Positions 22,820 through 64,000 are shown, numbered from the stretch's first letter. The stretch: DNA of 64,000 nt from a virus (IMGVR_UViG_3300046758_000611:1-64000); one strand, 5' to 3'. Numbers and translations are program-made. Notes: generated by a model from the sequence alone, not told the origin.

Positions 22820-25800
22820 TTAATCAGGTTGTACTTTTGCTATTGCAGTACTTACTTTCTTTCCGTCTAGGTTTACAGCAATTCCTCCGGACTTCATTAA
22901 AGCAATTAACTCACTTAATTTTTTCTCAATTGCTCCATCTGCTACTTCACGTGTATCAACAACAGTAGACGGTGATGGTTCTGACATAATCGTAGATATA
23001 GAGGGTGGAATTGTGGTATCCACAGATTGAGCAAGTTGCTCTATTTGAATTCCTGTTTGTAGTTCTTCATTTCCTTCGTCTGTTTCTGCAACGGAAAAAG
23101 GATTAAATGCTTCTCCAGGTGCAACTTGTGGAGATATGCTCATCATACCCGGATCACCAAAATCTACATTCCCACTTTCATCTTGTTTCCAATCAAAAAC
23201 ATTTAATGGTTTTTCAGGAACTTGAATATTTTCATAAGACTGAAATTGTTCTTGTGCTTTTTCTTGTATCATTCTTTCCATGTAATTGTTTTCCATTTGG
23301 AACTTATTTACATCAAGATACGTTGATTCACCTCGTCTTCTGTTTTCTTCACTTGATTCAATTAGTGATTTGTTTGTACCAATGTAAGATTGTAAATCTT
23401 CGATACTTGCATCACTGTGTGATCTCTTAAACAATTCATATTTTTTATCAACTTCAGGTTTCTTGAAATCGCCTGTCAAATTTGCAAAACTTTCACCAAG
23501 GGAGGATGTGTTTGTAGTTTTCTCAATATCGTCTGTCAAGTTTGCAAAACTTTCACCGAGAGATGATGTGTTTGTAGTTGTAGTTGCAAATGACGATGAT
23601 TTTGTTGGCATAATATCAGGTGATCCGTCTCCAATTCCCATGCGAATCATGTCTGCTTCTGAATTTACATTTGGTGGTAAAAATCCTCCACCTTCAGACG
23701 AACCACCGATACCCGTTCCCATTTGCTTAAGTGCCTCGATTTTTTCAATATTCAAATTATTAATATTTTCACACAATGAATAAAGTTCTGCATTTATGTC
23801 TTTTAGTGTTTGTATAATTGGATCGTCTACATTAGCAAATGCACTTAAAGATTCTGTTAATTTTACTCCAAGAAGTTCAATGTTTGAAACTGCACTTGGA
23901 TCAATTCCTTTTGCAACTTCACTTAAATCTCGTAAACTTGTGGTTAAAGAGATTTCTTTTACATTCGCAATTTTTGATACACCTTCAACGAATCTAACCA
24001 ATGATGATCCTGCTGATCTAAAAAAGTTTCCTATATCTTTTCCTTCACCGTCATTTAAATAATCAGAAAATTGTTCAACCCCTTTACCCAAACTTGTTAA
24101 GGTATTTCCGAAATTTGATGATATACTGATACCTGATAATGAAACGAGAGCATTGGATAACAATGCCATTTGGTTTACAAATGTACCTGTCATTGTTTCC
24201 ATTTCATCATCGTTTAGATAATCTAAGAATTCTTCTATTCCATGACCAAGACTTTGAAGATTTTCTCCAAATTGCTCTGTTATCTGAATTCCGGATAATG
24301 ATTTTAGTGCAGTTGAAAGTGAAAGCATTTGACTTGAAAATTTCTGTGTCATCGTTTCCATTTCATTATCGTTTAGATAATCCAAGAATTCTTCTATTCC
24401 TTTTCCTAAATTTTCTATCGTTGCACCAAAGCCGTCTGATATGTTTAACCCAGACAACGATGATATTGCTTTTCCCAGTGACATCATCTGTGATGAAAAT
24501 TGATCAGTAACTACACTTAATTCATCATCATCTAAATAATCTATAAACTCTTCAAGGCCTTCACCAAAGTTTTCTAGTGTATCTCCGATATTTGATTTAA
24601 TATTTAGACTTGAAAATTTCGTAAGTGCAGAACCTAAGTTTGATAGGTTTTTACCCAAACTTGAACTTACTTTTGCAAGATCAGCATCGTCCATATAATC
24701 AATAAAGTCTTCAAGACCTTCACCGAAGTCTTCTAGTTTATCACCAATGTCAGATTGAATATTAAGTGTGCTAAATGTATTTAAAGCATTTCCAAGATCA
24801 CTTAAATTTGATGCCAATGCACCACTTACTTCTGCTAAATCGGCATCGGACATATAATCAATAAAGTCTTCAAGACCTTCACCGAAGTCTTCTAGTTTAT
24901 CACCAATGTCAGATTGAATATTAAGTGTGCTAAATGTATTTAATGCGTTACCAAGTGCAGATAAATTAGATGCTAAACTTCCACTTACTTCTGCTAAATC
25001 TGCATCATCCATGTAATCAATAAAGTCTTCAAGTCCTTCTCCAAAGTCTTCTAGCTTATCACCAATATCGGATTGAATGTTCAAGGTGCTAAAAGTTTTT
25101 AGTGCATTGCCAAGATCAGTCAAATTTTTTGACAAACTTGCACTTACTTCTGCTAAATCAGCATCATCCATATAATCAATAAAGTCTTCTAGTCCTTCAC
25201 CAAAATCCTCAAGTTTATCACCAATATCAGATTGTATATTCAGAGTACTAAAAGTTTTTAATGCGTTTCCAAGATCATTCAAATTTTTTGATAAACTTAC
25301 ACTTACTTCTGCTAGATCAGCATCGTCCATATAATCAATGAAGTCTTCAAGACCCTCACCGAAATCTTCAAGTTGATCTCCGAGATCACTGCTTATATTT
25401 AAATTTGCAAATCCACGCAAAGCATTACCAAGTGCAGATAAGTTTGCAGATAAACTTACACTTACCTCTGCTAAATCAGCATCGTCCATATAATCAATGA
25501 AGTCTTCAAGACCCTCACCGAAATCTTCAAGTTGATCTCCGAGATCACCACTTATATTTAAATTTGAAAATCCTCGCAAAGCATTGCCAAGTGCAGTTAA
25601 ATTTGTTGATAAACTAACACTAACTGTTGCCAAGTCAGCATCGTCCATATAATCAATGAAGTCTTCAAGGCCTTCTCCGAAGTCTTCAAGTATATTACCT
25701 AGTTCTGAATTTATATTTAATGTTGAGAATGTTGAAATTGCCGATCCTAATTTTTTTAGATTTACAGACAGACTATCACTTATTGTTGCTAAATCCGCAT

Positions 25801-28800
25801 CTGCCATATAATCAATAAAGTCTTCAAGACCTTCACCAAAATCTTCAAGGTGGTCACCCAAATCAGGATTAATTTGTACACTTGCAAATGAATTTAATGC
25901 CTTTCCGATTGCATCTAGATTAGCAGGTAATGTTTTGGACATTGTATCTAAATCTGCATCTACCATATAATCAACAAAATCTTCAAGACCTTCTCCCAAG
26001 TCTTCAAGTCCATCACCAAGATCATCACCTACATCAGCAGTTATATTCATATCAGCAAGTTTCTTCAAAGAATCAGTTAATATTTTAAGATGAGGTCCTG
26101 CTGATTGCATTGAGTCTTCTACATCGGTAACCGAATCAGCAACCATTTTAAGAGCAGACGTTCCCCGTTGAACCGAGGGTAATATTCTTCCAATTTGTGA
26201 AAATGATTCTCCAAGTGAAGTAATAGTCTCTACTTGCTCCATATTAATCATTGTAAGTGCCATCGCAAGACGTGCCATAGAATATGAAATTAAATCCAAT
26301 ACACCAAGAGTTTCATCTGAAATTGATGCAAATTCATTGAGTTGATCAACCATTTTCTTGAGTGGTGCTTGTGACATTTCTACACCTCCACCTCCTGCGG
26401 CTGCTTGAGGTTTTTCTTCATCATCATCTCCACCAAACATTCCTGTAAATCCAGAAAATAAACTACTCATAAATCCCTCAGGTTCTTTTGCAACTGGGGC
26501 ATTACCGAGTATAGATGACATCAACTCAGGTAATACCGTTGATAATTGTTGAATTGGTGCAATATCTACATTTGATATTTGACTCAATCCATTTGCAACT
26601 GCTTCTAGTCCTACACCTAACATAAATGCTTGATCAGCAAAAGCAAATAATTCCGTCAAAGGACCAAACATATCATCCATTGGCATTGCTTCTGCATCTT
26701 TCATGGGATTCAATGAATCTATAAATCCGGATGCAGTATTTTTCAATGAACCTAAAATAGATGCTTCTTCTTCACCAGAAAATGCTCTTCTTAAATTTCT
26801 AATTGACTCGGAAACTGCATCAAGTGCATCTGTATCTATTCTACTTAAAACAGTTGTACCTATCGCAAGTTTTTCAATACCCATGCCCAATCCTTCAAAA
26901 TCTTTAGCATAAGGAGCAAGTTTTAATATTTCGTCAAATGGACCTTTAGCAGCCTCCTCCGAAGCATCACGAAATGGATTTACTGCATTTACCATATCCG
27001 ATCCAAAATTTACAAAAGAACTAGCAAGTCCACCTACAGCCTGACCAACTTGAGCAAATGCTAAACTTGATAATGCACCGGATACTGCGTATATAGCAAT
27101 TGCGGCCGATCCAATTTGTCCTGCCATTTCACCAAGTTGTTTTAAATAACCAACCGTAGATTCCAGTCCTCCACTGAGAACCTCAAGTCCCAAACCAACA
27201 ACCATTACGGCCGCACCGAATGTAAGAAGAGAACCAGACATTAAAGTTAAACTAATTGCTCCTAATGCAATAAATGGTAATAATGGTCCCAATGCAGCCA
27301 CAGCAAGTGCTATTCCAAATAAATTTGCAATTGATTCACCTGTAATTTGATTTAACGCATCCGCAGTTAAACTTAATCCCAATCCAAACAAAGACATTCC
27401 CACTCCTGCTACTAACAAAGCAACGGAAAACGGAATCAATGCAGCCGTCATAACTCCAATTGCAACCGCACCAAGAACTATAAAAGGTAGCATCAGTCCA
27501 ACAAGAGATATTGCCATTCCAAGATTAACAAGAAGTTCCGGTGCATTTGCATCACTTAACATTTGAAATCCGAGACCAACCAACGCAACTCCTGCTCCAA
27601 ACGCAAGCATAGCAACTGCTAATGGTATTAATGCAACACCAAGAATCGCAAATGCACCTGCCGTCAATAATATAAAAGGAGTTAATGGTGCAATTAATGC
27701 CATAGCACCAGCAAACAACATAAGACTTGCGGCTGCCTCTGGTAAATCTTTCATGGTATCCATTACCATGCTCATTCCATATCCAAATAATGCCACTCCT
27801 GCTCCTGCTAATGCTATTCCAATTCCAAACGGTATCAATGCAACACCAAATGCAGCCAATCCTAATCCTGCAACTGCAAGTGTAGGAGCAAGCATTGCCA
27901 TTGCACCAACAAAAATTCCAAAATTAAATGCGGCTGCGGGTAATTCAGATGAATGATCAATAAGTTGTTTTACACCAAATGCGAACAGTGTTAAACCCAT
28001 ACCGGCCGCAAGTAATCCAATCGAAAACGGAATTAATGCCAATCCAAGTATTCCAATTGAAACGGATGCTAATATTAATAAAGGAGACATAATTCCAATA
28101 AATGCAAATGCAGAACCAAGTGCATATATCATTCCAATATCACCCATAGACATTGATTGTATTGTTTCTATTACTTTACCAAATGCCGAGGCAATAATAT
28201 TAACTGCCGTTGCAAATGCCATGGCTGCTAATCCAAATACAAGCATAGCACCACCAACTGCAGCCAATGCACCAGCACCTGCTAAAATAACCGGAGAAAG
28301 TTTACCAAGCAATCCAGCAACAACTGCCAAAGCAGTAATCGCACCAATTCCAAGTAACACCGCAGAAAATGGAACATTTGCGAACATTTGAAAAGCAAAT
28401 GCGGCCGGGATAAGTGAAGCACCTAAAATCGCAACTGCGGCCGCACCTTTTATCATATCGTCACTTCCTTTGCTAAGTAATTTAGAAACTAGCACCAAAG
28501 CACCTATTGCAAATAAACCTTTTATAACACCTTCCCATGTTACTTCACCGAATTCCTGAAATGCTTTTGCTGAAATAAATAATGCACCGGCTAATATTGC
28601 TAATGCTCCGGCTGCTTTTAGTAAACCAGTTGTATCTATTTTCGCAAATTTATCAGCAAATCCAGGTCCTTTATTTGCGGCTGCGGATGGTTTTGGTGTT
28701 GCGGATTTAATTGGACTACCTCTTCCAAACGCCCCCACTCCACTTGGTGGTGGAATCGGTGGAGCACCGGAAGTAGTTCCACCTGCTGAAAATGCTGTTT

Positions 28801-31147
28801 TGATTGCAGAACCTAACCCTGCTACTTTTTTCAATGCTCCTTTTATCATATCACCAAATGAAGAAAATAGTCCTGTCATAGAAGTAGAACCCATTTTCAT
28901 TGCGACTGCGAGTGCAACTCCAAGTGATCCAACGATTGTTATTGCCGTACTTCCAAAGTCACTGAAACGTTCTTTCAAACGACTTGTATCACCTGTAATA
29001 GCCGCAATTAGATCACCTATTAACGCAAATGGTGCAACGATTAATTTTAATAAAAATCCTATAACCTTTAATATAGGTACAAGTGCCGACATAAATCCAT
29101 TTACAACAGGTAATAATGCTTCACCGAGTTCTACCATCATTTGATTAAATTGATTTTGCAGAGCATTCATTTTTGCTTGTTGAATTTCTTGCTTCATTCT
29201 TGCTTCTGCTTGTTGTGCTAAACTTTTTTCTTCACCACCACGAAGTGCTTCCAACTGCTTTTGATACTCAGCGGCCAGTTCTGGGTTTTCACGTGCAAAC
29301 TCAGCATTTTCTTTTTCAATTTTATTCATCTTGGTGAGTTCTTCTACACTCGTTCCAAGTGCTTCTGCAAGTGCTTGCTTTTGAAAACGATTCATGCGAT
29401 CAAATCCACCCATTTCTTTCATGATACGTAATTGCTCTTTTTGCATACCTGCTAAATCACCATCCATTGCAAGTTGTCGCATTTTTTGAAAATTAACATG
29501 ACGTCCCATCATGCTTGCCAATTTCATTTCCGATGAAATACTACTTTCAAAATCAAGTAAGTGACTTGCAGTTGCGGCCGCAGAATCTAAACTACTTCCC
29601 ATGCGTCTTGCTTCAACGGCTGCGGCTGCTAGATTTCTTGGCATATTACCAATTGCTAATATTGCATCCTCACTTGCGTTTGCAACATCTTCCATAACTT
29701 TACCAGCAGGAACTCCAGCAAGATTACTAAGTTCGGCAGTTGCAAGTGTTAAGTTTTGTGCTACTTCATCACTTGGTGCTCCCATTTCCATAAACTTAAC
29801 TAAAGCACCTGCGGCTGCATCTTGACTAATTCCTAATCCTGCACTTAACTTTGAAACTAATTCTATTTGTCCACGTGTAACATGATTAACATTTCCAAAT
29901 TCTTCTACTAATGCTTTTGCTGATCCAACTGCTTCTTCAATACTTACTCCAAAATATGCCAATTCTTTGTTTACTGAAATGGCATCTTTTTGTATTTGTT
30001 CCATTGCTCCATACGACAATCCAAGTTCGTTGCGAAATTCCTGTGTAGATTTTTCAAGTGCTTGAAATCTTGAAAATGCTAATGCCAATAATGCTACTAT
30101 ACTTCCAATTATTAATACAGGACCAGTTAACACGGAAGTCAACATAGAACCTATTCCTTTAATTGCACCCATCATTTCGGTGGATCCTGCTTTTAATGAA
30201 TCTGTCAATGTTGCTCCGGGTTTTCCCGCAACCTCTGCCATTTTAAGAAATCCAGCCGTAAAATCTTCTTTTACTTTGTTGGTTGCTTTTTCTAATGGTT
30301 TTTGTACACTTGATGCCAGAATTCCTCCTATCAATGGAATTTTTTTGATTGTGTTTGTAATTCCACTAGACATATTATCGATTTCACTATGAAATTCCTT
30401 AATTAAATCTTTGTTATTTTCTAGTAGTTTTTTGAAATTAGGTCCTAGACGTTCAAGAACACGTTCTAGTTTTTCAGTTGCATCAAGTTGTTCTTTCGTA
30501 GATTCTACCAAAGCATCTGAGTTGTGTTTCATTTGTGCTCTGATGATGTCTATATCTTTTTCTTTCTCAACTATGTCACTTATTTTTTTTAATTCTTCAT
30601 CTCTTATTTTAACGAGTCCTGCTTGTTGACCTATTATATCTGCGATTCGTGTTTTTTCTTTTCCAATAGTCTCACCTATTTCTTTGACTTTGTTTAATTG
30701 ATCGGTATATCCTACATCTAATTTATCCATCAAAGAAAGTTTTGTTTGTGCCATGGCCAATTCACTTTGCAAATTTGGCATAAGTTTGTTGTTCGATTCT
30801 TCTATTAACTTCTGCCCCAATGCTACTTTGTCATTTATTGCAGATGTTTGCTCGGTTATTTTTAATTCGACTTCTTTGTCGTCTTTTGCTTTTGATAATT
30901 CGTTTACAAGGTCTACCGACTCTTTTTTCATTTTTTCAAGCATAGAAGCAGATGCAGTAAGTTGTGTTGATAATTCTTTTACTTTATCACCACCTACAAT
31001 ATTTATTGCAGAATCTATTTCACCTGAACTTAGATTTTCAGATATTTGCTTAGTTATATCATTAATTTGGTTTTGGGTAGGAAGTAACCCATCTCCAATT
31101 GATTTTTGAAGATTAGAAGTAAAATCTATTACATCTTTATCGTCCAT
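22820..31147 (-). CDS. Tape measure protein (2775 aa)
   Basis: Very long Ala/Gly/Leu-rich helical protein downstream of the tube and chaperone genes; LLDFESSISSEM core, long hydrophobic region, internal tandem repeats. Confidence 0.85.
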   Translation of the reverse strand: MDDKDVIDFTSNLQKSIGDGLLPTQNQINDITKQISENLSSGEIDSAINIVGGDKVKELSTQLTASASMLEKMKKESVDLVNELSKAKDDKEVELKITEQTSAINDKVALGQKLIEESNNKLMPNLQSELAMAQTKLSLMDKLDVGYTDQLNKVKEIGETIGKEKTRIADIIGQQAGLVKIRDEELKKISDIVEKEKDIDIIRAQMKHNSDALVESTKEQLDATEKLERVLERLGPNFKKLLENNKDLIKEFHSEIDNMSSGITNTIKKIPLIGGILASSVQKPLEKATNKVKEDFTAGFLKMAEVAGKPGATLTDSLKAGSTEMMGAIKGIGSMLTSVLTGPVLIIGSIVALLALAFSRFQALEKSTQEFRNELGLSYGAMEQIQKDAISVNKELAYFGVSIEEAVGSAKALVEEFGNVNHVTRGQIELVSKLSAGLGISQDAAAGALVKFMEMGAPSDEVAQNLTLATAELSNLAGVPAGKVMEDVANASEDAILAIGNMPRNLAAAAVEARRMGSSLDSAAATASHLLDFESSISSEMKLASMMGRHVNFQKMRQLAMDGDLAGMQKEQLRIMKEMGGFDRMNRFQKQALAEALGTSVEELTKMNKIEKENAEFARENPELAAEYQKQLEALRGGEEKSLAQQAEARMKQEIQQAKMNALQNQFNQMMVELGEALLPVVNGFMSALVPILKVIGFLLKLIVAPFALIGDLIAAITGDTSRLKERFSDFGSTAITIVGSLGVALAVAMKMGSTSMTGLFSSFGDMIKGALKKVAGLGSAIKTAFSAGGTTSGAPPIPPPSGVGAFGRGSPIKSATPKPSAAANKGPGFADKFAKIDTTGLLKAAGALAILAGALFISAKAFQEFGEVTWEGVIKGLFAIGALVLVSKLLSKGSDDMIKGAAAVAILGASLIPAAFAFQMFANVPFSAVLLGIGAITALAVVAGLLGKLSPVILAGAGALAAVGGAMLVFGLAAMAFATAVNIIASAFGKVIETIQSMSMGDIGMIYALGSAFAFIGIMSPLLILASVSIGILGLALIPFSIGLLAAGMGLTLFAFGVKQLIDHSSELPAAAFNFGIFVGAMAMLAPTLAVAGLGLAAFGVALIPFGIGIALAGAGVALFGYGMSMVMDTMKDLPEAAASLMLFAGAMALIAPLTPFILLTAGAFAILGVALIPLAVAMLAFGAGVALVGLGFQMLSDANAPELLVNLGMAISLVGLMLPFIVLGAVAIGVMTAALIPFSVALLVAGVGMSLFGLGLSLTADALNQITGESIANLFGIALAVAALGPLLPFIALGAISLTLMSGSLLTFGAAVMVVGLGLEVLSGGLESTVGYLKQLGEMAGQIGSAAIAIYAVSGALSSLAFAQVGQAVGGLASSFVNFGSDMVNAVNPFRDASEEAAKGPFDEILKLAPYAKDFEGLGMGIEKLAIGTTVLSRIDTDALDAVSESIRNLRRAFSGEEEASILGSLKNTASGFIDSLNPMKDAEAMPMDDMFGPLTELFAFADQAFMLGVGLEAVANGLSQISNVDIAPIQQLSTVLPELMSSILGNAPVAKEPEGFMSSLFSGFTGMFGGDDDEEKPQAAAGGGGVEMSQAPLKKMVDQLNEFASISDETLGVLDLISYSMARLAMALTMINMEQVETITSLGESFSQIGRILPSVQRGTSALKMVADSVTDVEDSMQSAGPHLKILTDSLKKLADMNITADVGDDLGDGLEDLGEGLEDFVDYMVDADLDTMSKTLPANLDAIGKALNSFASVQINPDLGDHLEDFGEGLEDFIDYMADADLATISDSLSVNLKKLGSAISTFSTLNINSELGNILEDFGEGLEDFIDYMDDADLATVSVSLSTNLTALGNALRGFSNLNISGDLGDQLEDFGEGLEDFIDYMDDADLAEVSVSLSANLSALGNALRGFANLNISSDLGDQLEDFGEGLEDFIDYMDDADLAEVSVSLSKNLNDLGNALKTFSTLNIQSDIGDKLEDFGEGLEDFIDYMDDADLAEVSASLSKNLTDLGNALKTFSTLNIQSDIGDKLEDFGEGLEDFIDYMDDADLAEVSGSLASNLSALGNALNTFSTLNIQSDIGDKLEDFGEGLEDFIDYMSDADLAEVSGALASNLSDLGNALNTFSTLNIQSDIGDKLEDFGEGLEDFIDYMDDADLAKVSSSLGKNLSNLGSALTKFSSLNIKSNIGDTLENFGEGLEEFIDYLDDDELSVVTDQFSSQMMSLGKAISSLSGLNISDGFGATIENLGKGIEEFLDYLNDNEMETMTQKFSSQMLSLSTALKSLSGIQITEQFGENLQSLGHGIEEFLDYLNDDEMETMTGTFVNQMALLSNALVSLSGISISSNFGNTLTSLGKGVEQFSDYLNDGEGKDIGNFFRSAGSSLVRFVEGVSKIANVKEISLTTSLRDLSEVAKGIDPSAVSNIELLGVKLTESLSAFANVDDPIIQTLKDINAELYSLCENINNLNIEKIEALKQMGTGIGGSSEGGGFLPPNVNSEADMIRMGIGDGSPDIMPTKSSSFATTTTNTSSLGESFANLTDDIEKTTNTSSLGESFANLTGDFKKPEVDKKYELFKRSHSDASIEDLQSYIGTNKSLIESSEENRRRGESTYLDVNKFQMENNYMERMIQEKAQEQFQSYENIQVPEKPLNVFDWKQDESGNVDFGDPGMMSISPQVAPGEAFNPFSVAETDEGNEELQTGIQIEQLAQSVDTTIPPSISTIMSEPSPSTVVDTREVADGAIEKKLSELIALMKSGGIAVNLDGKKVSTAIAKVQPD
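23475..23579 (-). repeat. Tandem duplication with 60-bp period in the TMP C-terminus
   Basis: Two copies encoding TTNTSSLGESFANLT(D/G)D. Confidence 0.85.
24040..26100 (-). repeat. About 13 tandem 159-bp (53-aa) coding repeats in the TMP
   Basis: Unit EDFGEGLEDFIDYMDDADLAEVSxSLxxNLxxLGNALxxFxxLNIxSDxGDxL; identical DNA words 159 nt apart (about 25343 and 25502). Confidence 0.95.
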
Positions 31148-54449: not shown

Positions 54450-56978
54450 TTAAAATCTCATTATACCCATAATTTGATTTATAGGAGCAAATGTTCCGGT
54501 TAGTTTATATGTTCCACCTTTATATTGAAATACAACACCTTCTGTTGGTGCGATTGCGTTGCTTCCACCAATAGAATTAAGACGATTGAGATTTTTATTT
54601 AACTTCTCCATGTCTTTCTTAAACTTATCAGGTGATTCAACAGAACCAATCTTTTTTGATTCTAATGTTTTAACATGAACATCAAGTGCCTTTGCTATAT
54701 CATCACTTCCTCCGGCCGCAACGAATCCTTTTACATTCTTTAATACTTCCGCACCCAATTTCAAAAAGATGAATTGAAATGGCCACATATTTTCTTCAAA
54801 TTGTTTTGTAACATCTTCTTTTTCAAACTTAGTAACCCACGCAAGTAACTTTGGATGATCAGATAATTCTTTTTTAATTGTAGTAATTTTATTGGACTTA
54901 TCGTTATATGCCCAACGACCGATGAGTGCCTCGTATACTTTTGATGGAAATATCTCTTTAGTTTTTGTTTGTTGCTTATTTAATAAATCTCTCCACCAAG
55001 AATCATGATACTTCATTACTTTGTCGTTGTCTTTTAATCTAAATTTATTTTTAAGTTTATCTATTTTAGCAGAATACTTTGTATAAGAATCTCCGAATGT
55101 TTTGCTTTTAGGAAGTTCCACAACAATTGGTGCGTTCAGTGAATAACGACTTTGAACATCTGCGTTTATTTGTTTAAGCATACCTTTAAGCATTCTTGCA
55201 GAGTCTTTAAGTTCACTTGTTATATCGTTTCCCTCGGAATCTACACTAACTGCTTTTCCTGCGGAATCATATGCTTGTGTTCCGTGAAATACCAACATAT
55301 CTACATTTTGAGGAATAACATTTTGTGTTGCGGGTGTCATTACCTCTATATTCATAAAACGTTCACCTTCACGAAATACTTTATTCTTTTGTGCATCAGT
55401 AAGACCCGATATAGCAGTTTCCAAATCTTCAACTGCACTTACAAACGCATCACGAATATTATCAGGACGATCAGCAAATATACTAGAAAATTCTTTTACA
55501 TTAGGTGCGGCTGCTCCTGCATTTTTTAAATGTCCTTGATTTCTTGCAGCCACCAATTCACCATCTTTCCAAGAAAACATTAAATTTTGACCATCAAGTT
55601 TTTCAGTAACTTCTTTTTCAACATTTAGTTCACCTGCCAACGACCTACGAATCATTTCTTTTAAATCGGCAAATGTTAAATCACGATCATCGAAAGGATG
55701 ACTCATATGACCAGCCGCACCTCCTTCTGTGATTATTTTGCTTTCCTTTATAGCATGACCTTCAACTCCTTTATCAATTTCTTCACTACCACTTGCTTCT
55801 TTGCTAGATGAATCAATTGTATTTTTATCAACAAGGTCTTCATCTCCTTGTTCGTTGTTCTTACGAATGGATTTTTCAGAACCAACAAAGTCTACAAGTT
55901 TGTATCCTACAGTTTCGGCAACATTTTCAATGAAGTTAACCCATTGATCGTGGGCATTTGAAGTTTCTTCTGTATTAATTTGATTTGTAGGTGATCCTAC
56001 ATCAAAATCACCAGAAGGATAAAAAGATACCGCAGGAACTGGACCAGAGTATTTTCCCCACTCACGATAATCTGCGTTACGACCTAATCCGTTTTTTCCA
56101 ACCACAAAGTCAAGCACATCATAACCAAGTTGCTTTGCACGGTTTGATGTGTAACTTTCATAAGACTCACCTGGATAATAAACAGAAGGTCCATCATCAA
56201 CCATTGATTTTCCCATTGAAGATATTGAACTTATTTCGTTTATTATACTTGGAAATTTTTCAATAAGTTTTTCAAACTTTGGATATTCATTTAAAAAGTT
56301 TTCAAAAATTTCTTCGTTTTCAAATAATGTTCCGAACTTCTTAGTAAGATACTTAAATATTTTTTCATCATACCAACCGAAGAGCTCTTCAAATGCTTGA
56401 ATCTTTGTCATTTCATCGTGTTCAGGACTACCCAATAAATCACGAATCCGAGTACCACTTACTTCTTTTCCCAAGACCTTGATACTTACATGAGGAGCAA
56501 CAATAAAATAACCATGTTCACCGTATGGTTTTAGATCATTTTTATTTTTCTCATATGATTGATAGTATGCAGGTGATCCATCTGCTTTAGTTGTTTTGAG
56601 ACGACCTGCATCTTTTTCTCCAAAAATATAAACCACCGCAGTTGTATTCGGATTATACTTTTTTAAAATCTCTTCGCATACATACGGATTTTTTACTTTA
56701 ACTACATTCTTAACTCCATGCTTCGTCCATACCAGTTTCTTTTCTTTAAAATTCAAAGGACTTTTTGTGGCATCGGTTTTATTACTCGTAGCAACATATG
56801 CTTTATCAAACTTACCATCTAACCACTTGTATGTTTTGTAATGATGCACACCTGCCGGTTGAAATCTACCAGGATAAATTCCAATTACCTTTTTTATTTT
56901 AGGTGATTCATTCAACAACTCTTCAACCATAAAGTCGGTTAAGTCATTTGCAAGTGAGTTAGTGTTTTTGTAATTCAT
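54450..56978 (-). CDS. HIGH-type (cytidylyltransferase-like) nucleotidyltransferase fused to a KxDG ligase-like domain
   Basis: N-domain IYPGRFQPAGVHH...GEKDAGR...VSGTRIR; C-domain after ITEGGAAGH with TEKLDGQN, NIEV, VFHG, TEGVVF, YKLTG. Confidence 0.65.
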   Translation of the reverse strand: MNYKNTNSLANDLTDFMVEELLNESPKIKKVIGIYPGRFQPAGVHHYKTYKWLDGKFDKAYVATSNKTDATKSPLNFKEKKLVWTKHGVKNVVKVKNPYVCEEILKKYNPNTTAVVYIFGEKDAGRLKTTKADGSPAYYQSYEKNKNDLKPYGEHGYFIVAPHVSIKVLGKEVSGTRIRDLLGSPEHDEMTKIQAFEELFGWYDEKIFKYLTKKFGTLFENEEIFENFLNEYPKFEKLIEKFPSIINEISSISSMGKSMVDDGPSVYYPGESYESYTSNRAKQLGYDVLDFVVGKNGLGRNADYREWGKYSGPVPAVSFYPSGDFDVGSPTNQINTEETSNAHDQWVNFIENVAETVGYKLVDFVGSEKSIRKNNEQGDEDLVDKNTIDSSSKEASGSEEIDKGVEGHAIKESKIITEGGAAGHMSHPFDDRDLTFADLKEMIRRSLAGELNVEKEVTEKLDGQNLMFSWKDGELVAARNQGHLKNAGAAAPNVKEFSSIFADRPDNIRDAFVSAVEDLETAISGLTDAQKNKVFREGERFMNIEVMTPATQNVIPQNVDMLVFHGTQAYDSAGKAVSVDSEGNDITSELKDSARMLKGMLKQINADVQSRYSLNAPIVVELPKSKTFGDSYTKYSAKIDKLKNKFRLKDNDKVMKYHDSWWRDLLNKQQTKTKEIFPSKVYEALIGRWAYNDKSNKITTIKKELSDHPKLLAWVTKFEKEDVTKQFEENMWPFQFIFLKLGAEVLKNVKGFVAAGGSDDIAKALDVHVKTLESKKIGSVESPDKFKKDMEKLNKNLNRLNSIGGSNAIAPTEGVVFQYKGGTYKLTGTFAPINQIMGIMRF

Positions 56979-57511: not shown

Positions 57512-57838
57512 TTATCCTTCTATATAATCTATGGGTTTGTTTGTTTTAATGTTTTTCTTACAGGCCTCTTTTTTTTCAAAATACATATATGGAGAATTTT
57601 TGATATACCACTCTGTACAATGATAGACGGTTCCACTTAAGATAGGTCCTTCCGTACTCATTGATTCTGTAAACGAACCTATAAATTCATATTTGTGTTT
57701 TTCTTTTAAAAAACGGTTTGCCATATTTTTTGACCAAGATTCATTTCCTTCTTTTTTTGTTTCAAAACTATATTTCTCACCCGACTTTGCGAGTTCAAGT
57801 TTATATGATTCACCTAAACTTTCGGATACTAAATTCAT
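57512..57838 (-). CDS. Hypothetical protein
   Basis: 108-aa ORF coupled to the kinase gene. Confidence 0.5.
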   Translation of the reverse strand: MNLVSESLGESYKLELAKSGEKYSFETKKEGNESWSKNMANRFLKEKHKYEFIGSFTESMSTEGPILSGTVYHCTEWYIKNSPYMYFEKKEACKKNIKTNKPIDYIEG

Positions 57839-58869
57839 TAATCAAACTTCTCCGATTTAATTTTCATGTAAAATCTAGTAAATTCGTCACTATCTAGTTC
57901 TAAACTTTCAACTAATCTTGATAATACTGCCAAATTCCGTTGAGGTGATAGATTAAACTTTTCTATTATATAAATTGTACGACTCAAATATCGTTCAAGG
58001 TCTGCTGGTAAAATTGCTTTATCAATTTCATTTAATAGTTGTTCAGTAACACGATTTCTTTTATCACCACTTTTGCTCATTTTATCGTATGCCATCATCA
58101 TTTTGATCCATTTCTTTCCAATTGGATTTTTAATTGGTTTTGAAATAAATTTTGCTACCTCTTTCATAAGTCGTGGAACTAAATCTAATCTACCAGGTTT
58201 TGTTTTACTACGAGTATCTTCTGAATTGTCTACTATAACAAAGTTTGCTTTGAACAAACCTTGAAACTTACCAAGATTTTTTTGGACATCTGTCCAAATA
58301 TCCTTTACTATTTTTCGTGGAAGTTTTCTTTTACGCATTGCGTTTCTTTGTTGTGCGACATCAAGTGTTGTGTTTACAAACACCATATAACAATCGTATC
58401 CTAGTTTTTCAAGTTCTTTTTTTTGCTTTGATATTTTGTTATAGTTGTCACCTGTCCCATCAACAATAATACCCAAACGACCATCTTTAAATAACTCAAA
58501 TTGTTTAAGCATTATTTTCTTCGCACGGGAACGAATACTATTTGGATCATCACTTGTTACTTTGGCAAATGTTTCATCATCCATTTTAGATAAATTCAGA
58601 TCATATCCTGCCTTTTTAAGTAATATTTCAAATGCAGGATCACTGTTTACAATCTTTAAACCACTTGGTGATAAATTTTTTGCATCCGGTGGAAAATTGA
58701 ATAATGTATCAACAGTAGCAGATTTACCAGAACCAGGTCCTCCTGCTAAAAATACTGCTTTTAAAATACCAGGATCATATACACCCTCTACAAGTGTAAA
58801 GTATCCTTTACGCAATCCTGCTTTAATCAGGGTTTCTTGGACTTTTTGATTTTCTTCGGATTTTTCCAT
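57838..58869 (-). CDS. P-loop kinase (Zeta toxin / polynucleotide kinase / AAA_33-like)
   Basis: FLAGGPGSGKS, IVNSD, IIVDGTG, lid motif AQQRNAMRKR. Confidence 0.8.
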   Translation of the reverse strand: MEKSEENQKVQETLIKAGLRKGYFTLVEGVYDPGILKAVFLAGGPGSGKSATVDTLFNFPPDAKNLSPSGLKIVNSDPAFEILLKKAGYDLNLSKMDDETFAKVTSDDPNSIRSRAKKIMLKQFELFKDGRLGIIVDGTGDNYNKISKQKKELEKLGYDCYMVFVNTTLDVAQQRNAMRKRKLPRKIVKDIWTDVQKNLGKFQGLFKANFVIVDNSEDTRSKTKPGRLDLVPRLMKEVAKFISKPIKNPIGKKWIKMMMAYDKMSKSGDKRNRVTEQLLNEIDKAILPADLERYLSRTIYIIEKFNLSPQRNLAVLSRLVESLELDSDEFTRFYMKIKSEKFD

Positions 58870-58912
58870 AAATACAATTCAGGTACATAATAAATATATA
58901 TCTAAATATGTT

Positions 58913-61513
58913 TTATGCTCCGTATTTTATCTTACTAAATGAACCTTCTTTTTGAATTTCTACAATTTCATCCACCATATCTCGCATAACATCCAAATGG
59001 CTAATGACTACGATGAACTCAAATTGCCCCTTTAAATAGGTAAATAGATTAAATACACTACTGATGTTATCTCCGTCTAATGTACCCCACCCTTCATCAA
59101 TAACAAGGAAATTAGAACGAGGAAGACTGCTTACATTGATAAGTGCCACACGCATAGCAATACTGCTTATGAATCGTTCCATGCCACTACACATCTCTAA
59201 AGGCCAATGACGATCTTCATAAGTAATCTTTGAGTAAATGTGTTTTCCGTCCATTTCAAGATTCATGCCGAAATCAACGATTTGAGAAAGAATATTATTA
59301 ACCTCACTTTCAATACTAGGAATAGTTTTAGAAATAAGTTCATATGAAATACCATCTCGTTTTACTGCATCAAGATATAGTTCATATCCTCGTTTTTTTC
59401 TTTCATAACTTTTTGCCTCTTCGATAGATGAAAGAACATCTTCGTGTTCTTTTTCAACAATCTTAACTTCACCAAAAAGAGTTTGAAGTTTTTCTGTTTC
59501 TTCATTTGCTATTAAATTCACTTTTGTAAGTTTATTTTGTATATCAGCAACTTCAACTTGTAAAGATTTATTAAATTCAATAATATCTTTACATTCATAA
59601 TATTCGTTGATACTTTTTTCATTTAATAGAATATCCTTTTCAAGTGATTCTATCATACTTGACAATGCAAGAATCTTGGCATCTGTTTGATTTATTTCAT
59701 AAGAAAGTTGTGTATTTTCTGATTTTAAATTATTATACAATTCATAATCACTATCAACATTTTTATATATTTCAAGTTGTTGTTCAAATTCATTTTTTCT
59801 CTTAACAAGTTCATCTGCATCTGCTTTATCTTTATCAAGTTCTTTTTTAGTAATTTCCGCACTTTCTATCAAATTTTTTGAATTAGTAACACAATGCTTA
59901 CAATTAGGATCGTATTCATGACTATCATAATGTTTCAATTTATCAAGTTTAGCATTAACTGATGTTCTTAATACTGCCAAATCTTTATCGACTAAATTTA
60001 TATTTTCACGAATTTTTAAGACATCTACATATTTTTCTTCTATACCGTCAAGTTCAGATATTTTTTTGAATTTTAGTGATTTATCGTTTGATAACTTCTT
60101 CTTTTTATCAGACTCAAGTGAACGATTATCTTTTGCCACATCAAGTCTTTCTTTTAAGTTTGTTTTATTAAATTCTAATTTATCTATATCTACGGATGCT
60201 TCCTCAAATGAGCAATTTTTAAATTGTGCATTTTTGTCTGCCAATTCTTTATTTAGTTTTTTCTGTTTTAATAAAGCAATATTAGTTCTACTATCCTGTT
60301 CATTGTATTGATGTTTAACATCTTCTAATTTTTCTTGAACATTGTTTAATGTTTCATCAAAATCTTCACGATTAAATCTTTTTAAAAGTGCGTTTATTTC
60401 TTTTATATCTTCCGATGCAGTTGTATGTAACTGATCGAACATATCTATTCCCATAAACTGAGCAAGTAAATCTTTTCTCTCACTTTGACTTTTATCTATA
60501 AAAATTGCATTATTATTTTGCAAACTAAGTGTAGTCAAAACAAAATCATCATATGACCCGACATGATCACGTATTACTGCATTGGTTCCTGCTCTTTGTT
60601 CTCCGTTTAGTGAAATTGTTTGACCTTCTTCATCATGTTTCCAGAAATCAACAACAACCGTTACATCTCCGTTCTTTTTAGTAGTTGCAGTTCTTTCTAT
60701 AAAATAATTTACTCCACTTATTTCAAAATTAAGTTTACAGTAAAAATTATCAGTTTGTGTATTCAATACGTGTGCGGCCTTGAATGCACGATCACATTTA
60801 TCAAATAAACAAAAACTCAAAGCACTCATCACACTACTTTTACCACTTGCATTTGAGGCAAATAATCCCATAACACTTTTCATGTTTGAAAAGTCTATTA
60901 TGTTTCCATCTCCGTAACTAAACATATTACCGAATTCAAACTTCTTTGGTTTCCAAATACAATTTCTTAAAACTTCTTTTACTACCAACTTTTCATTTAT
61001 TTCTTTGTTGATATCAAGAGCAGTTTTTACTTGCTCATCATCAACAACAAAATTCCTGCGAAGATAATCTTCTATTAAATCATTTTGAACTTGTATTGTA
61101 GTAATGTCACCGAAATCAAATTTATTATCACGATCATATTTTTTTGCCTCGGAAATTGCATCACAACGAGTTACATTCAAATCACTTATATTTGTTTTCT
61201 TTCGTATATCTGCTATAATTTCTTTAGTTTCAGTTGCAGTAGTATTATATACCTTTACACGAAGTCTTGCTTTTCTTGGTAATAAACTAAGATCACTAAT
61301 ACACTTTCCATCACGAACTACAATTGTATAATATCCATAATCATTGTGAACTTCGTGGTGCGTATGTGTTTGATTATTTAAGTCCCACAAAACATATCCA
61401 TGACCATTTGGTTTTTCACCGTGATTTTGTTGAATCATACTACCAGAATAAACAACAATTGGTTTATTCTTATTGTGTCTTTTTACTTTTATATATGTTT
61501 CTTTATCTTCCAT
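58913..61513 (-). CDS. sbcC: Rad50/SbcC (gp46-like) ATPase carrying the C-terminal part of an Mre11/SbcD nuclease at its N-terminus
   Basis: N-terminal VVYSGSMIQQNHGE...HGYVLWD; NMFSYG, Walker A SNASGKSS, coiled coil with zinc hook CKHC, signature CSGMERF, Walker B IDEGWGTLD, VISH; ATG 61513. Confidence 0.9.
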   Translation of the reverse strand: MEDKETYIKVKRHNKNKPIVVYSGSMIQQNHGEKPNGHGYVLWDLNNQTHTHHEVHNDYGYYTIVVRDGKCISDLSLLPRKARLRVKVYNTTATETKEIIADIRKKTNISDLNVTRCDAISEAKKYDRDNKFDFGDITTIQVQNDLIEDYLRRNFVVDDEQVKTALDINKEINEKLVVKEVLRNCIWKPKKFEFGNMFSYGDGNIIDFSNMKSVMGLFASNASGKSSVMSALSFCLFDKCDRAFKAAHVLNTQTDNFYCKLNFEISGVNYFIERTATTKKNGDVTVVVDFWKHDEEGQTISLNGEQRAGTNAVIRDHVGSYDDFVLTTLSLQNNNAIFIDKSQSERKDLLAQFMGIDMFDQLHTTASEDIKEINALLKRFNREDFDETLNNVQEKLEDVKHQYNEQDSRTNIALLKQKKLNKELADKNAQFKNCSFEEASVDIDKLEFNKTNLKERLDVAKDNRSLESDKKKKLSNDKSLKFKKISELDGIEEKYVDVLKIRENINLVDKDLAVLRTSVNAKLDKLKHYDSHEYDPNCKHCVTNSKNLIESAEITKKELDKDKADADELVKRKNEFEQQLEIYKNVDSDYELYNNLKSENTQLSYEINQTDAKILALSSMIESLEKDILLNEKSINEYYECKDIIEFNKSLQVEVADIQNKLTKVNLIANEETEKLQTLFGEVKIVEKEHEDVLSSIEEAKSYERKKRGYELYLDAVKRDGISYELISKTIPSIESEVNNILSQIVDFGMNLEMDGKHIYSKITYEDRHWPLEMCSGMERFISSIAMRVALINVSSLPRSNFLVIDEGWGTLDGDNISSVFNLFTYLKGQFEFIVVISHLDVMRDMVDEIVEIQKEGSFSKIKYGA

Positions 61514-62429
61514 GTGTAACAATTTTCAAAATATTTTCACCAACATCTGTGTCACTTAAGAACGGACTGAGGTGCATATGACCTTGGTTCGGAAAGTACA
61601 TATTTGGTCCTAGAAATGGAACTCTATTTTCAAGGTTGTTTAAATCTCCTCCGTTTTGTTGCCAAACAACTCCTTTTGGCCCGAACATCTGGTGAATATA
61701 GTCGGTTGTGATAACAGTTCTGGTGCCCAGAGCAGATGCCATATTTGTAAGACACCCCTCAGAACCAATTACAAAATCACAATTTTTTATTAAACTTGCA
61801 GTAAAAGAAAACTTACTTGTAGAATTAATAGTTGGATATCGTTTAGAAATTGTGTCTTCGAGACCAAGTGCAAATAGAATTACCCTCGGATGATGTTCCA
61901 TGCAATTAATTATATCAAATGTGTTTCTTGTTTTTTGTCCATATCCAGAACCAGTTTCTCCACCGTCTGCGTTATTGTATTCTTCTTCAGTAAATAAGAA
62001 ACTTTTTTTATGCCAATCCATTTGGTATCCGACTTTTATTATATCAGACTTCCAGTCACCTATGTTTTCTAGTTCCTGCATACTTTTTTCAATTGCATAG
62101 TCAAGAATAGTATTTGTAAAAATTTCAAAGGTATCGTCAAAATTTTTTATTTCACATATTTTTTGAAATTGTGAAGTAATTGATTCGTATGGATTTAATG
62201 TGGAGTTGCCAGAAATTAAATTATATACTTTATCGTATACACCCTCGTTTTCCATAAAAAAAACTTTATCTATATACGGATTGCAATTTAATAACTCAAG
62301 TGGTTGTAAATAATTTATATCAAAGTGAATTTCACATAACTTGTTTTGCTTTATTTTTTTAGCAACACTACTTGCAAGTAGAATATCACCAATGTGAATA
62401 TTTCTACATTTTATCAGTATCTTACTCAT
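61503..62429 (-). CDS. GT-B glycosyltransferase (GT9 / heptosyltransferase-like)
   Basis: HIGDILLASS...KKIK, LLNCNPYIDKV, ASLIKNCDFVIGSEGCLTNMASALGTRTV match the N- and C-lobe patterns of GT9 enzymes. Confidence 0.75.
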   Translation of the reverse strand: MSKILIKCRNIHIGDILLASSVAKKIKQNKLCEIHFDINYLQPLELLNCNPYIDKVFFMENEGVYDKVYNLISGNSTLNPYESITSQFQKICEIKNFDDTFEIFTNTILDYAIEKSMQELENIGDWKSDIIKVGYQMDWHKKSFLFTEEEYNNADGGETGSGYGQKTRNTFDIINCMEHHPRVILFALGLEDTISKRYPTINSTSKFSFTASLIKNCDFVIGSEGCLTNMASALGTRTVITTDYIHQMFGPKGVVWQQNGGDLNNLENRVPFLGPNMYFPNQGHMHLSPFLSDTDVGENILKIVTHGR

Positions 62430-63126
62430 CTGCTATATTCCAACCATCAAGTTTATATTTATCTTGATTGCTTTCTGCTATAAATTTATGTTCAGTTTGA
62501 TATTCCTGTAAAACTTGGTATTTGTGTATATCACCTAACATTACTATGTCATATCCGTCAAACATACCCAAATCAATATCACCACCCATGACCACATACC
62601 CCACGTCTGTGCGACTTCTTTTTACTGCTCCGTGATAAACTGCTATCTTAGTTTTAATTGATTCATCTTTTATGTCAAATCCACGAACATAATTACTCGG
62701 ATCGTCTAATATACTAAAAACACTAACTGCAACATCTCCTATTTTATATAACCCACTATTCTTTAAATAAAAAAGATTTTCATCATCCATCATATCCATT
62801 ATTGGAGATAAAACATCAAGACGGTCAGGATTATTTAAATTACAATCATGGTTTCCTGCAATTACGAGAGTTGGGTGTAGTTTTGAACATTCACGTAAAA
62901 AAGATGATATTTGGTGAATAAGTTCAGGACTCATTTCTGTTTTAGCATGAGCAATATCTCCACCAATAAAAATAATAGCATTATCGTAGTTATCTTCTTT
63001 AACTTGATTATAGAAGTTTTCAAAAACCTGAGAATATTCTGTATGCCTCTTTACATTTCGAATGTGTATATCTGCAAGATGGTATACTTTTTCAATATTT
63101 TTTAAATCTGTTTTTAACTCAAGCAT
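62422..63126 (-). CDS. sbcD: Mre11/SbcD (gp47-like) metallophosphoesterase, N-terminal part
   Basis: LADIH, GGDIAH, AGNHD, YHG, LGDIHK; the YSGS motif and capping region are absent here and present in 58913..61513. Confidence 0.88.
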   Translation of the reverse strand: MLELKTDLKNIEKVYHLADIHIRNVKRHTEYSQVFENFYNQVKEDNYDNAIIFIGGDIAHAKTEMSPELIHQISSFLRECSKLHPTLVIAGNHDCNLNNPDRLDVLSPIMDMMDDENLFYLKNSGLYKIGDVAVSVFSILDDPSNYVRGFDIKDESIKTKIAVYHGAVKRSRTDVGYVVMGGDIDLGMFDGYDIVMLGDIHKYQVLQEYQTEHKFIAESNQDKYKLDGWNIADE

Positions 63127-64000
63127 AATTTCTGTTTCATCAACTCACCAAAATCAAGTAGTTTGGTATTTTTTATTTTAGTAATCACCCGAAGAAATCC
63201 TACATCAGATGCATCCTCATCTTCCATTTTAACTAATCTAACTTTTATATTTTCCTTCATAAGAGATTCAGACATACTAATTGCATTTTTGTATGCATCA
63301 CTATCCAACACAATCGTAATTTCTTTTACATCGTGTTCTACTAATTTTAATCTTAACTTATTTGGAATGTTTTTACCAAGCAGGGGAATGGCATTTCTTC
63401 TTATCGCCATTGCATCAAAAACTCCTTCGCAAAAAATAATGGGTTCTTCGTAGTTTATTTGATTTTCAAAAACAACTACATCTTTACTAACAGGTGGGTT
63501 TTTGTATTTAAGATATGCAGATCCTGTATAGTCCCTTGCTAGAAAGTAATTTAGTTTGTTGTTGCAATCAAATGACGGAACTATAATACGACCACCGTAA
63601 TCCCCACCCGAACAATATCCTATTTCATATCGTTCCATGTCATATGATTGTATATTTCTTTTTTTCAAATAATTTAATGCCTTAGAGTAATCTAATTCAT
63701 TTCTATAATCACTTAGTTTTTTATATTCATATGGCAATGAAATAAATTGTTGTTCTGCATTTTCAAGTTTGGTATTCTTGGGTAACTTTACTATTTTTGA
63801 CAACTCAGCAAAATAATTATTTGGAACTTGTAATCTTTTAAACAATGAAAATATACTACGACCTTTTGCGTTGGTATCAATCCAACTTTGCCACCTCTGA
63901 GTAACGAGATTTACTGCCAACTTAGGTTTTCTATGATGAGAAAATGGGCATATAAACATAACCTCGTCTTTAGAGACGATTTTACCTGCTCCTAATACTT
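63114..64000 (-). CDS. DNA primase (DnaG/gp61-like TOPRIM), 5' end beyond the window
   Basis: YLKKRNI, RIIVP, YFLAR, KYKNP, CEGVFDA, LDSDA, EDASD; the frame stays open to the window edge (VLGAGKIVSKDEVMFICP). Confidence 0.88.
   Translation of the reverse strand, partial: VLGAGKIVSKDEVMFICPFSHHRKPKLAVNLVTQRWQSWIDTNAKGRSIFSLFKRLQVPNNYFAELSKIVKLPKNTKLENAEQQFISLPYEYKKLSDYRNELDYSKALNYLKKRNIQSYDMERYEIGYCSGGDYGGRIIVPSFDCNNKLNYFLARDYTGSAYLKYKNPPVSKDVVVFENQINYEEPIIFCEGVFDAMAIRRNAIPLLGKNIPNKLRLKLVEHDVKEITIVLDSDAYKNAISMSESLMKENIKVRLVKMEDEDASDVGFLRVITKIKNTKLLDFGELMKQKLCLS

Follow-up and report, generated by a model that had tools for sequence, protein, structure and literature searches.

A phage gene that most relatives carry as a single fusion of sbcD and sbcC (Mre11-Rad50) is present as two separate open reading frames (ORFs), with a glycosyltransferase-like gene between them, at positions 58913-63126 of the viral sequence IMGVR_UViG_3300046758_000611:1-64000. 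This stretch, here called the window, comprises 64,000 nucleotides (nt) of a 170-kb IMG/VR virus genome, and its minus strand carries every large ORF. We consider it likely that the locus is a fractured gene, in which the sbcD-sbcC fusion would have been broken into two separately translated genes at the hairpin turn of a β-α-β-β mini-domain of about 45 residues, itself inserted between phosphoesterase motif V and the YSGS strand. A 234-residue N-half with all the metal-binding motifs would reassemble non-covalently with an 866-residue C-half, which would supply two missing core strands, the capping domain and Rad50, the two being joined by β-sheet complementation. An acidic tail at the end of the N-half (N-tail) and a basic segment at the start of the C-half (C-head) would come together again as the mini-domain and act as a clasp, with neither RNA nor protein splicing taking part. 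The insert and the break would form a mobile trait associated with homing endonuclease genes of the free-standing kind, and in the window's clade the gap is now filled by a GT9-like gene that probably came from a phage cluster for sugar modification.

Two ORFs jointly encode an SbcD-SbcC protein

The N-half (62422..63126, minus strand, 234 residues) carries SbcD phosphoesterase motifs I-V followed by an acidic C-terminal tail. A first-pass annotation, made from the sequence alone, had placed phosphoesterase motifs here, and we found them as ADIHIR, GGDIAH, GNHD, YHG and GDIH; the metal-binding Asp, His and Asn residues of motifs I-V all lie in this half and are invariant in our alignment (A2). 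The N-half matches the Pfam Metallophos profile above its cut-off (profile positions 2-190 of 191, E = 8.8e-8) as well as phrog_100, annotated 'SbcD-like'.

The C-half ORF (58913..61522, minus strand) holds what remains of the Mre11 domain, in fusion with SbcC/Rad50. From the ATG at 61513, which is kept in relatives, it encodes 866 residues and begins MEDKETYIKVKRHNKNKPIVVYSGSMIQQNHGE. The next Mre11 elements (YSGS, QQNHGE, HGY and the capping region) stand at the opening of this ORF, from 61513, where the annotation had seen them. Alignments with unsplit fusions and with Thermotoga Mre11 assign 60944..61462 (minus strand) to the Mre11 remainder, with the VVYSGS strand, QQNHGE, HGY and the capping domain, and show that the C-half contributes the YSGS strand, the HGY strand and the capping domain; a complete calcineurin-like β-sandwich with its capping domain is obtained only from both polypeptides jointly. 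The SbcC/Rad50 part follows at 58913..60943 (minus strand), and the hallmarks of an SbcC/Rad50 ATPase can all be read in its translation: Walker A (NASGKSS), a coiled coil with a CxxC zinc hook (DPNCKHC), the signature (SGMERF) and Walker B (LVIDEGWG). The C-half matches phrog_77, annotated 'SbcC-like' (E = 9e-43), and the Pfam families SMC_N and SbcC_Walker_B, both below the Pfam cut-offs.

Between the halves lies a cargo gene (61503..62429, minus strand) for a 308-residue putative glycosyltransferase (GT) of GT-B fold, classed as GT9-like from a fold model and Foldseek. It had been described as filling the gap and overlapping both neighbours, and it does so by 8 nt at the stop of the N-half (ATGAGTAA, 62422..62429, minus strand) and by 11 nt at the start of the C-half (ATGGAAGATAA, 61503..61513, minus strand); the junction strings quoted earlier, GATGAGTAAG at 62430-62421 and CATGGAAGATAA at 61514-61503, are both found there. 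The first junction is an overlap in relatives L004-L008 as well, and the ATG at the second is conserved in relatives, whose C-halves start with MEDKE, MDEVKE or MDEPK. The overlapping stop and start codons probably couple the translation of the three genes and so keep them co-expressed. Such overlaps are not general in split relatives, among which spacers of 69 and 173 nt occur, and this speaks against coupling as a universal property of the split form. A scan of 58500-64000 found fewer promoter-like sites than in shuffled sequences and no terminator inside the three genes.

The break maps to a loop insert found intact in some fusions

With the N-half as query, a search of 1.84 billion representative proteins returned 3188 matches. 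The best 150 of these 3188 are mostly proteins of about 1040-1070 residues that match the query only as far as residues 206-214, just past GDIH. The unsplit SbcD-SbcC fusion is the norm among relatives, as the ancestral fusion postulated in the first-pass annotation would have it. The nearest isolate, Microcystis phage Mel-JY01 (WWT39521.1, PP395634.1), has a single ORF of 1066 residues that reads ...GDIHKMQYMDTERRLAYPGSLIQQNFGE... across this region. The Mel-JY01 fusion is like the window's gene in belonging to the same family (about 40% identity to the N-half by tblastn), in having the same motifs on either side of the break point and in lying just downstream of a primase-like gene, with one small ORF between. 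It differs in being one ORF, with a 12-residue loop in place of the insert, the break and the cargo gene.

We measured the loop as the number of residues between GDIH and the Y-x-G-S strand in 134 unsplit relatives. It is 12-13 residues long in 77/134, 16-21 in 37 and 37-51 in 7, and Mel-JY01 aligns without a gap to Thermotoga Mre11 across GHIH...YPGS; the short loop that had been given as canonical after the last His motif is thus seen in the relatives themselves. The window has 33 + 21 residues in this interval, about 41 above the norm. Extra residues flanking the break had been reported, and they are present, but they are not peculiar to the break: they are two parts of the 37-51-residue insert found unbroken in P0120, P0175 and P0224. 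These unsplit long-insert fusions (P0120, 1097 residues; P0175, 1089 residues; P0224; and a few others) contain the homologues of both tails as one continuous stretch, e.g. ...GDIHKYQILQDYKTNYVVCDLHQKSSYIKNGWKQLYEDNNNFLMSRYDETKPIVVYPGS.

The fold of the insert is predicted from one modelled long-insert relative, P0120. An AlphaFold2 model of its residues 1-420 has a mean predicted local distance difference test (pLDDT) of 88.8, with 92-96 across the insert, and matches solved Mre11/SbcD structures in Foldseek with probability 1.0 and template modelling (TM) scores (TMt) of 0.57-0.72. In the model the insert forms a compact mini-domain composed of a β-strand (215-222), an α-helix (223-231), a β-strand (235-240), a turn and a last β-strand (243-250). 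In all split forms the N-half ends a few residues past a conserved G-W and the C-half starts just ahead of the last strand (Y-x-K-V-K-R), and the break maps onto the 241-242 turn of the P0120 model. The surface loop to which the break had been assigned is therefore the hairpin turn of this mini-domain. In the window, the N-tail (N-half residues 208-234, EYQTEHKFIAESNQDKYKLDGWNIADE, 62425..62505, minus strand, net charge -4) corresponds to the first three elements (β-α-β) of the predicted mini-domain and the C-head (C-half residues 1-17, MEDKETYIKVKRHNKNK, 61463..61513, minus strand, net charge +3) to its last β-strand. The same polarity, acidic in the N-tail and basic in the C-head by net charge, is seen in 11/12 lineages.

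The tails share the motif E-x-E-h-x-K-Y-h-x-x-G-W and are 26-59% alike where the cores are 42-49% alike, which speaks against a recent transfer of the tails. Because they share a motif and diverge about as much as the cores, we regard the tails as homologous and old, not convergent.

Occupants of the gap and history of the break

Counted by lineage, the gap between the halves holds no gene in five, a homing-endonuclease-like gene in three and a GT9-like gene in the window's clade only. The cargo of L002 (LR756508.1, a 484-kb uncultured phage) is a 305-residue zinc-ribbon protein with a TnsA-like PD-(D/E)xK domain (PF08722, E = 5.8e-6), and it has no homology to the window's cargo. In L023 and L024 the gap encodes a 284-residue protein, complete as an ORF in L023, with a zinc ribbon, NUMOD3 and a Vsr-like endonuclease (PvuRts1I-like_N, E = 7.9e-7; DUF559; motif IECDGDYWH); its Vsr-like family is the one defined by Dassa et al. 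2009 (PMC2677866). The ORF in L015 is truncated at the contig end, matches a homing-endonuclease phrog and has an N-terminal module in common with the L023 gene. The five lineages with no gene in the gap (L017, L019, L020, L022 and L070) have spacings from an 11-nt overlap to a 173-nt spacer. The first-pass annotation had tied the break to the glycosyltransferase, and this tie does not hold, since relatives broken at the same turn hold homing-endonuclease-like genes or nothing. For the same reason the GT gene most likely arrived later, in a gap that a mobile endonuclease had made or used.

The split forms are scattered among unsplit ones. Their nearest relatives can be unsplit and short-looped at 74% (P0131-P0143), 71% (P0124-P0127) or 65% (P0218-P0181) identity, while split forms are only 42-52% identical among themselves. 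Trees of the nuclease core require nine changes for the split state, of which five to six are forced by well-supported branches, although the nuclease-domain tree rests on only about 200 columns and support for many of its deep branches is weak. A single clade of split and long-insert forms was rejected by the approximately unbiased (AU) test (log-likelihood difference 452, p-AU 0.0001); the group tested was set by the trait, yet the test was made after the first tree had been seen. The scatter is as expected of a mobile insertion that would spread by lateral transfer or drop out where it recombines with uninterrupted alleles. The identity of L023 to P0127 was checked for a drop next to the insert, the trace of a co-conversion tract, and none was clear beyond the immediate flanks.

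Other selfish elements occur in the same gene and around it. The split relatives P0124 and P0196 (L023:5001-6656 and L025:5001-6638) carry a LAGLIDADG intein of about 320 residues after GNHD, with Cys at +1. With an intein at GNHD|C and a fracture in the loop, this gene appears to be a hot spot for selfish elements. The neighbourhood of the primase-sbcDC block is rich in free-standing endonuclease genes. SegE-like GIY-YIG genes lie just upstream of the block at L001:3265-3777 (Mel-JY01), L023:3632-4042 and L025:1399-1860. At L025:4028-5035 a 335-residue ORF with a weak TnsA-like endonuclease match overlaps the start of the intein-bearing N-half, at the place where other relatives have the primase gene.

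The strongest competitor to this history, to which we assign a low but not negligible probability, has the break come first and without a mobile element: a mutation would have given a stop and a start in the hairpin turn of a pre-existing insert, and endonuclease genes and the GT gene would have colonised the gap later and independently. It draws on the existence of unsplit long-insert forms, on the absence of cargo in 5/9 split lineages, and on L020, a split form without cargo that is colinear with and 66% identical to the unsplit P0175, the sole difference being a stop and a start at the hairpin turn. Cargo-less and fused forms are, however, explained equally well as decay after loss of an endonuclease. 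Insert and split forms scattered among short-loop relatives 65-74% identical to them would still need lateral spread or repeated exact loss, and the endonuclease genes in the same gap in three lineages, together with the LAGLIDADG inteins in the same locus, point to mobile-element traffic.

Within the fractured-gene proposal, a more speculative step, which we think possible but would not bet on, is that the tail-coding insert is a portable, self-complementing adaptor. A cassette made of acidic β-α-β tail, stop, cargo, start and basic β-strand would then move between phage sbcDC genes, the clasp mini-domain serving as a protein-level antidote to the cassette's own break. If so, the cassette would be a non-splicing counterpart of an intein, and it would leave a neutral 'safe-harbour' gap that is later filled by ordinary genes such as the GT gene or healed into a 45-residue scar.

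Selection on the halves and their predicted reassembly

We estimated ratios of nonsynonymous to synonymous substitution rates (dN/dS) pairwise between the window and six relatives. The values, approximate because dS is 0.6-2.8 and near saturation, are 0.03-0.11 for the N-half core, 0.08-0.29 for the N-tail, 0.07-0.23 for the GT gene, 0.05-0.09 for the Mre11 remnant in the C-half and 0.09-0.17 for the Rad50 part. Every part of the locus, cargo included, is under purifying selection (dN/dS < 0.3); both halves look intact, as had been thought, and relaxed selection is not seen.

The N-half was co-folded with C-half residues 1-190, each chain with its own alignment. The interaction prediction score from aligned errors (ipSAE) was 0.90, compared with 0.01 for the best of three controls. 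The mark that we used for this score is reached by 58/80 solved complexes and by 2/110 mismatched pairs, a calibration that is rough here, where author-made alignments were used. The co-fold runs had at least 92% of contacts in common, and the partner pLDDT was at least 73. The contacts with the lowest error pair the N-half strand at residues 13-16 with C-half residues 40-45, and N-half residues 195-197 and 203-205 with C-half residues 20-22. In the model these contacts are β-sheet complementation, with strands of the C-half placed in the sheet of the N-half. Residues 206-234 of the N-half, at its tail, contact C-head residues 5-17. The idea that the halves re-associate, with their tails as a point of contact, is thus favoured by co-folding, with the caveat that Mre11 structures have been solved.

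That the halves no longer cooperate, the N-half being a stand-alone phosphoesterase or a decaying remnant and the C-half an SbcC-like ATPase without a working nuclease domain, seems to us improbable. Some lone activity is conceivable, with all the metal-binding motifs in the N-half, but this half is without two core strands and the capping domain, and co-folding puts strands of the C-half into its sheet. The Mre11 remnant in the C-half has the lowest dN/dS of all parts bar the N-half core, the tails give 0.08-0.29, and at least 12 contigs, as well as several distant lineages, retain the 234/866-residue layout.

Removal of the interruption, by a group I or II intron, a split intein or ribosomal bypassing, would yield a single SbcDC polypeptide, and we hold this to be very unlikely. 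Introns and inteins are frequent in phage DNA-metabolism genes, and relatives of this same gene hold the LAGLIDADG intein at GNHD|C. Nonetheless, neither an intein nor an intron was found with Pfam or Rfam; a spliced transcript without the GT ORF had been named in the first-pass annotation as an outcome that would refute its reading. A group I or II intron was rejected because Rfam gave no match at E <= 1 in 58000-64000, because the ORFs overlap and leave no non-coding room, and because RNA folding is ordinary at both junctions (z-scores -0.44 and 0.02). The N-terminal part of a split intein has about 100 residues, and its blocks place a catalytic Cys or Ser at the junctions and an Asn at the terminus. 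The tails, of 27 and 17 residues, are too short for this, start with Glu and end with Lys, and no intein domain was detected in the window's proteins. We know of no precedent for a ribosomal bypass of 927 nt. The tails are moreover conserved as protein and persist within unsplit mature proteins, and in split forms without cargo the spacing between the halves ranges from -11 to 173 nt.

An assembly artefact or chimeric contig, conceivable for a record that is a metagenomic assembly, can be set aside with near certainty, since the same three genes with overlapping boundaries recur in at least 12 contigs from different metagenomes (L004-L009, L027-L030, L106 and L107) at 76-94% protein identity and with synonymous divergence throughout; the misassembly that the first-pass annotation had allowed for is not borne out.

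Several points weigh against the fractured-gene reading with its mobile history, in addition to the limits of the tree, the AU test, the dN/dS values and the ipSAE calibration given with those results. The two chains are halves of one domain, so the co-fold score may reflect memory of the solved Mre11 structures and hence likeness rather than binding. We infer reassembly, nuclease activity and translational coupling from sequence and models. No endonuclease remnant was seen in the window and no homologue of the L023 endonuclease in the window's phage record, so that replacement of a homing endonuclease gene by the GT gene is a reconstruction of history; the GT gene could also have entered a gap that was empty.

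The glycosyltransferase-like cargo

The AlphaFold2 model of the cargo protein (pLDDT 91) has a GT-B fold with two Rossmann domains. Its top nine Foldseek matches are GT9 enzymes (3tov, WaaF, WaaC and TibC the best), with probability 1.0. No Pfam family was assigned, and Glyco_transf_9 gave no match at E <= 0.1; the N-terminal 59 residues match the heptosyltransferase III profile TIGR02201 with E = 4.4e-4, at 19.4 bits against a cut-off of 170. The earlier label thus stands at the level of fold and lacks a sequence match to Pfam GT9, and because the family-profile match is missing we call the protein GT9-like and not a demonstrated GT9 member. It has in common with the GT9 heptosyltransferases (WaaC, WaaF, TibC and the Veillonella protein 3tov) the GT-B fold and an N-terminal pattern, ILIxxxxxIGD...NPYID; it differs from GT9 enzymes in sequence (10-13% identity, TM 0.43-0.54) and is about 30-40 residues shorter.

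We found 113 homologues of the cargo. Clustered at 90% identity, the proteins at least 51% identical to the embedded GT form about 80 clusters, and every one of them with a contig examined sits in the sbcD gap. For three of the more distant homologues (42% identity or less) the contigs were examined, and there the neighbours are GT2, GT7, epimerase, aminotransferase and methyltransferase genes. With close homologues in the gap and distant ones in sugar clusters, the GT gene appears to be a sugar-pathway gene that moved into the gap. The window's phage record has a single copy of the cargo gene. Outside the window, 35-50 kb away, the same record has GT7-like, GT2 and NAD-dependent epimerase genes (97305-97883, 107621-108037 and 115012-115695), and these are possible partners of the GT9-like gene. 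A Pfam match to Tad3 (PF25185) lies at L013:7577-7948, in a sugar-gene cluster that holds a distant cargo homologue.

Relation to known fractured genes

The arrangement is not unprecedented, as two earlier studies show. Dassa, London, Stoddard, Schueler-Furman and Pietrokovski (Dassa et al. 2009, NAR 37:2560, PMC2677866) described one SbcD-like gene from the Global Ocean Sampling (GOS) Lake Gatun data that is fractured by a Vsr-like ORF, with no intein. Its upstream ORF has 25 extra residues and its downstream ORF 9, between consecutive conserved motifs (PMC2677866). That locus is like the window's in having an SbcD-like gene in two ORFs, no intein, a free-standing gene between them that overlaps the downstream half, and extra residues; that the break site is the same we infer from the published description only. 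The gap gene there is a Vsr-like endonuclease, of a kind also present in L023 and probably in L015, whereas the window has a GT-B, GT9-like enzyme. The paper deals with a single locus and reports no unsplit insert forms, no cargo-less forms and no SbcC fusion.

In Aeromonas phage Aeh1, the tails of the mobE-split NrdA are essential for activity (Crona et al. 2011, NAR 39:1381, PMC3045599). These authors, who cite Friedrich et al. for earlier work, suggested that the endonuclease brings the tails with it (PMC3045599). Like the window's gene, Aeh1 nrdA is an essential DNA-metabolism gene split into separately translated halves with short, oppositely charged tails and without RNA or protein splicing. 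It is split by a free-standing homing endonuclease gene, mobE, whereas the window's cargo is not an endonuclease, and both the target enzyme and the endonuclease family differ. The polarity of the tails is also reversed: in Aeh1 it is the upstream half that ends in a basic tail and the downstream half that begins with an acidic one. The window's tails are predicted halves of a folded mini-domain that is also found unbroken, and the function shown for the tails in Aeh1 is predicted here.

Of the features that mark a fractured gene, the window has a conserved single-gene enzyme in two adjacent ORFs, with one break point and intact relatives, and oppositely charged extra tails that are absent from most intact relatives. 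A homing endonuclease gene lies between the halves in L002, L015 and L023, and not in the window. With a GT-B gene in place of the endonuclease, the window's locus is a variant of the fractured-gene arrangement. New in it is the presence in the gap of a selected non-endonuclease gene, fixed in an abundant marine phage clade; the layout with the GT gene in the gap is common in marine metagenomes. New, too, are the modelling of the two tails as parts of one folded mini-domain, which some relatives keep unbroken, the variety of states in which this one gene occurs naturally, and the fusion to SbcC.

Fractured genes are a means by which essential enzymes survive selfish DNA without RNA or protein splicing. 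The natural states seen for this one gene (short loop, unbroken insert, and a break with no cargo, with an endonuclease gene or with a metabolic gene) make the order of events testable rather than a matter of guesswork. The gap left by a fracture is open to takeover by an ordinary selected gene, a possible route by which phage cargo comes to lie inside an essential operon. The first-pass annotation had noted that the split would embed the cargo gene in an important replication locus, and this may be a selected benefit. The natural split site and its small clasp in Mre11 may serve studies of Mre11-Rad50 assembly or protein engineering.

Neighbouring genes

Two further genes lie downstream of sbcC on the minus strand. 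The nearer (57838-58869) encodes a 343-residue P-loop kinase of the Zeta-toxin/AAA_33 type and is syntenic in L004-L008; the other (54450-56978) encodes an 842-residue protein with weak cytidylyltransferase-like and ligase-like Pfam matches. A very long ORF of 2775 residues occupies 22820-31147 of the window, also on the minus strand.

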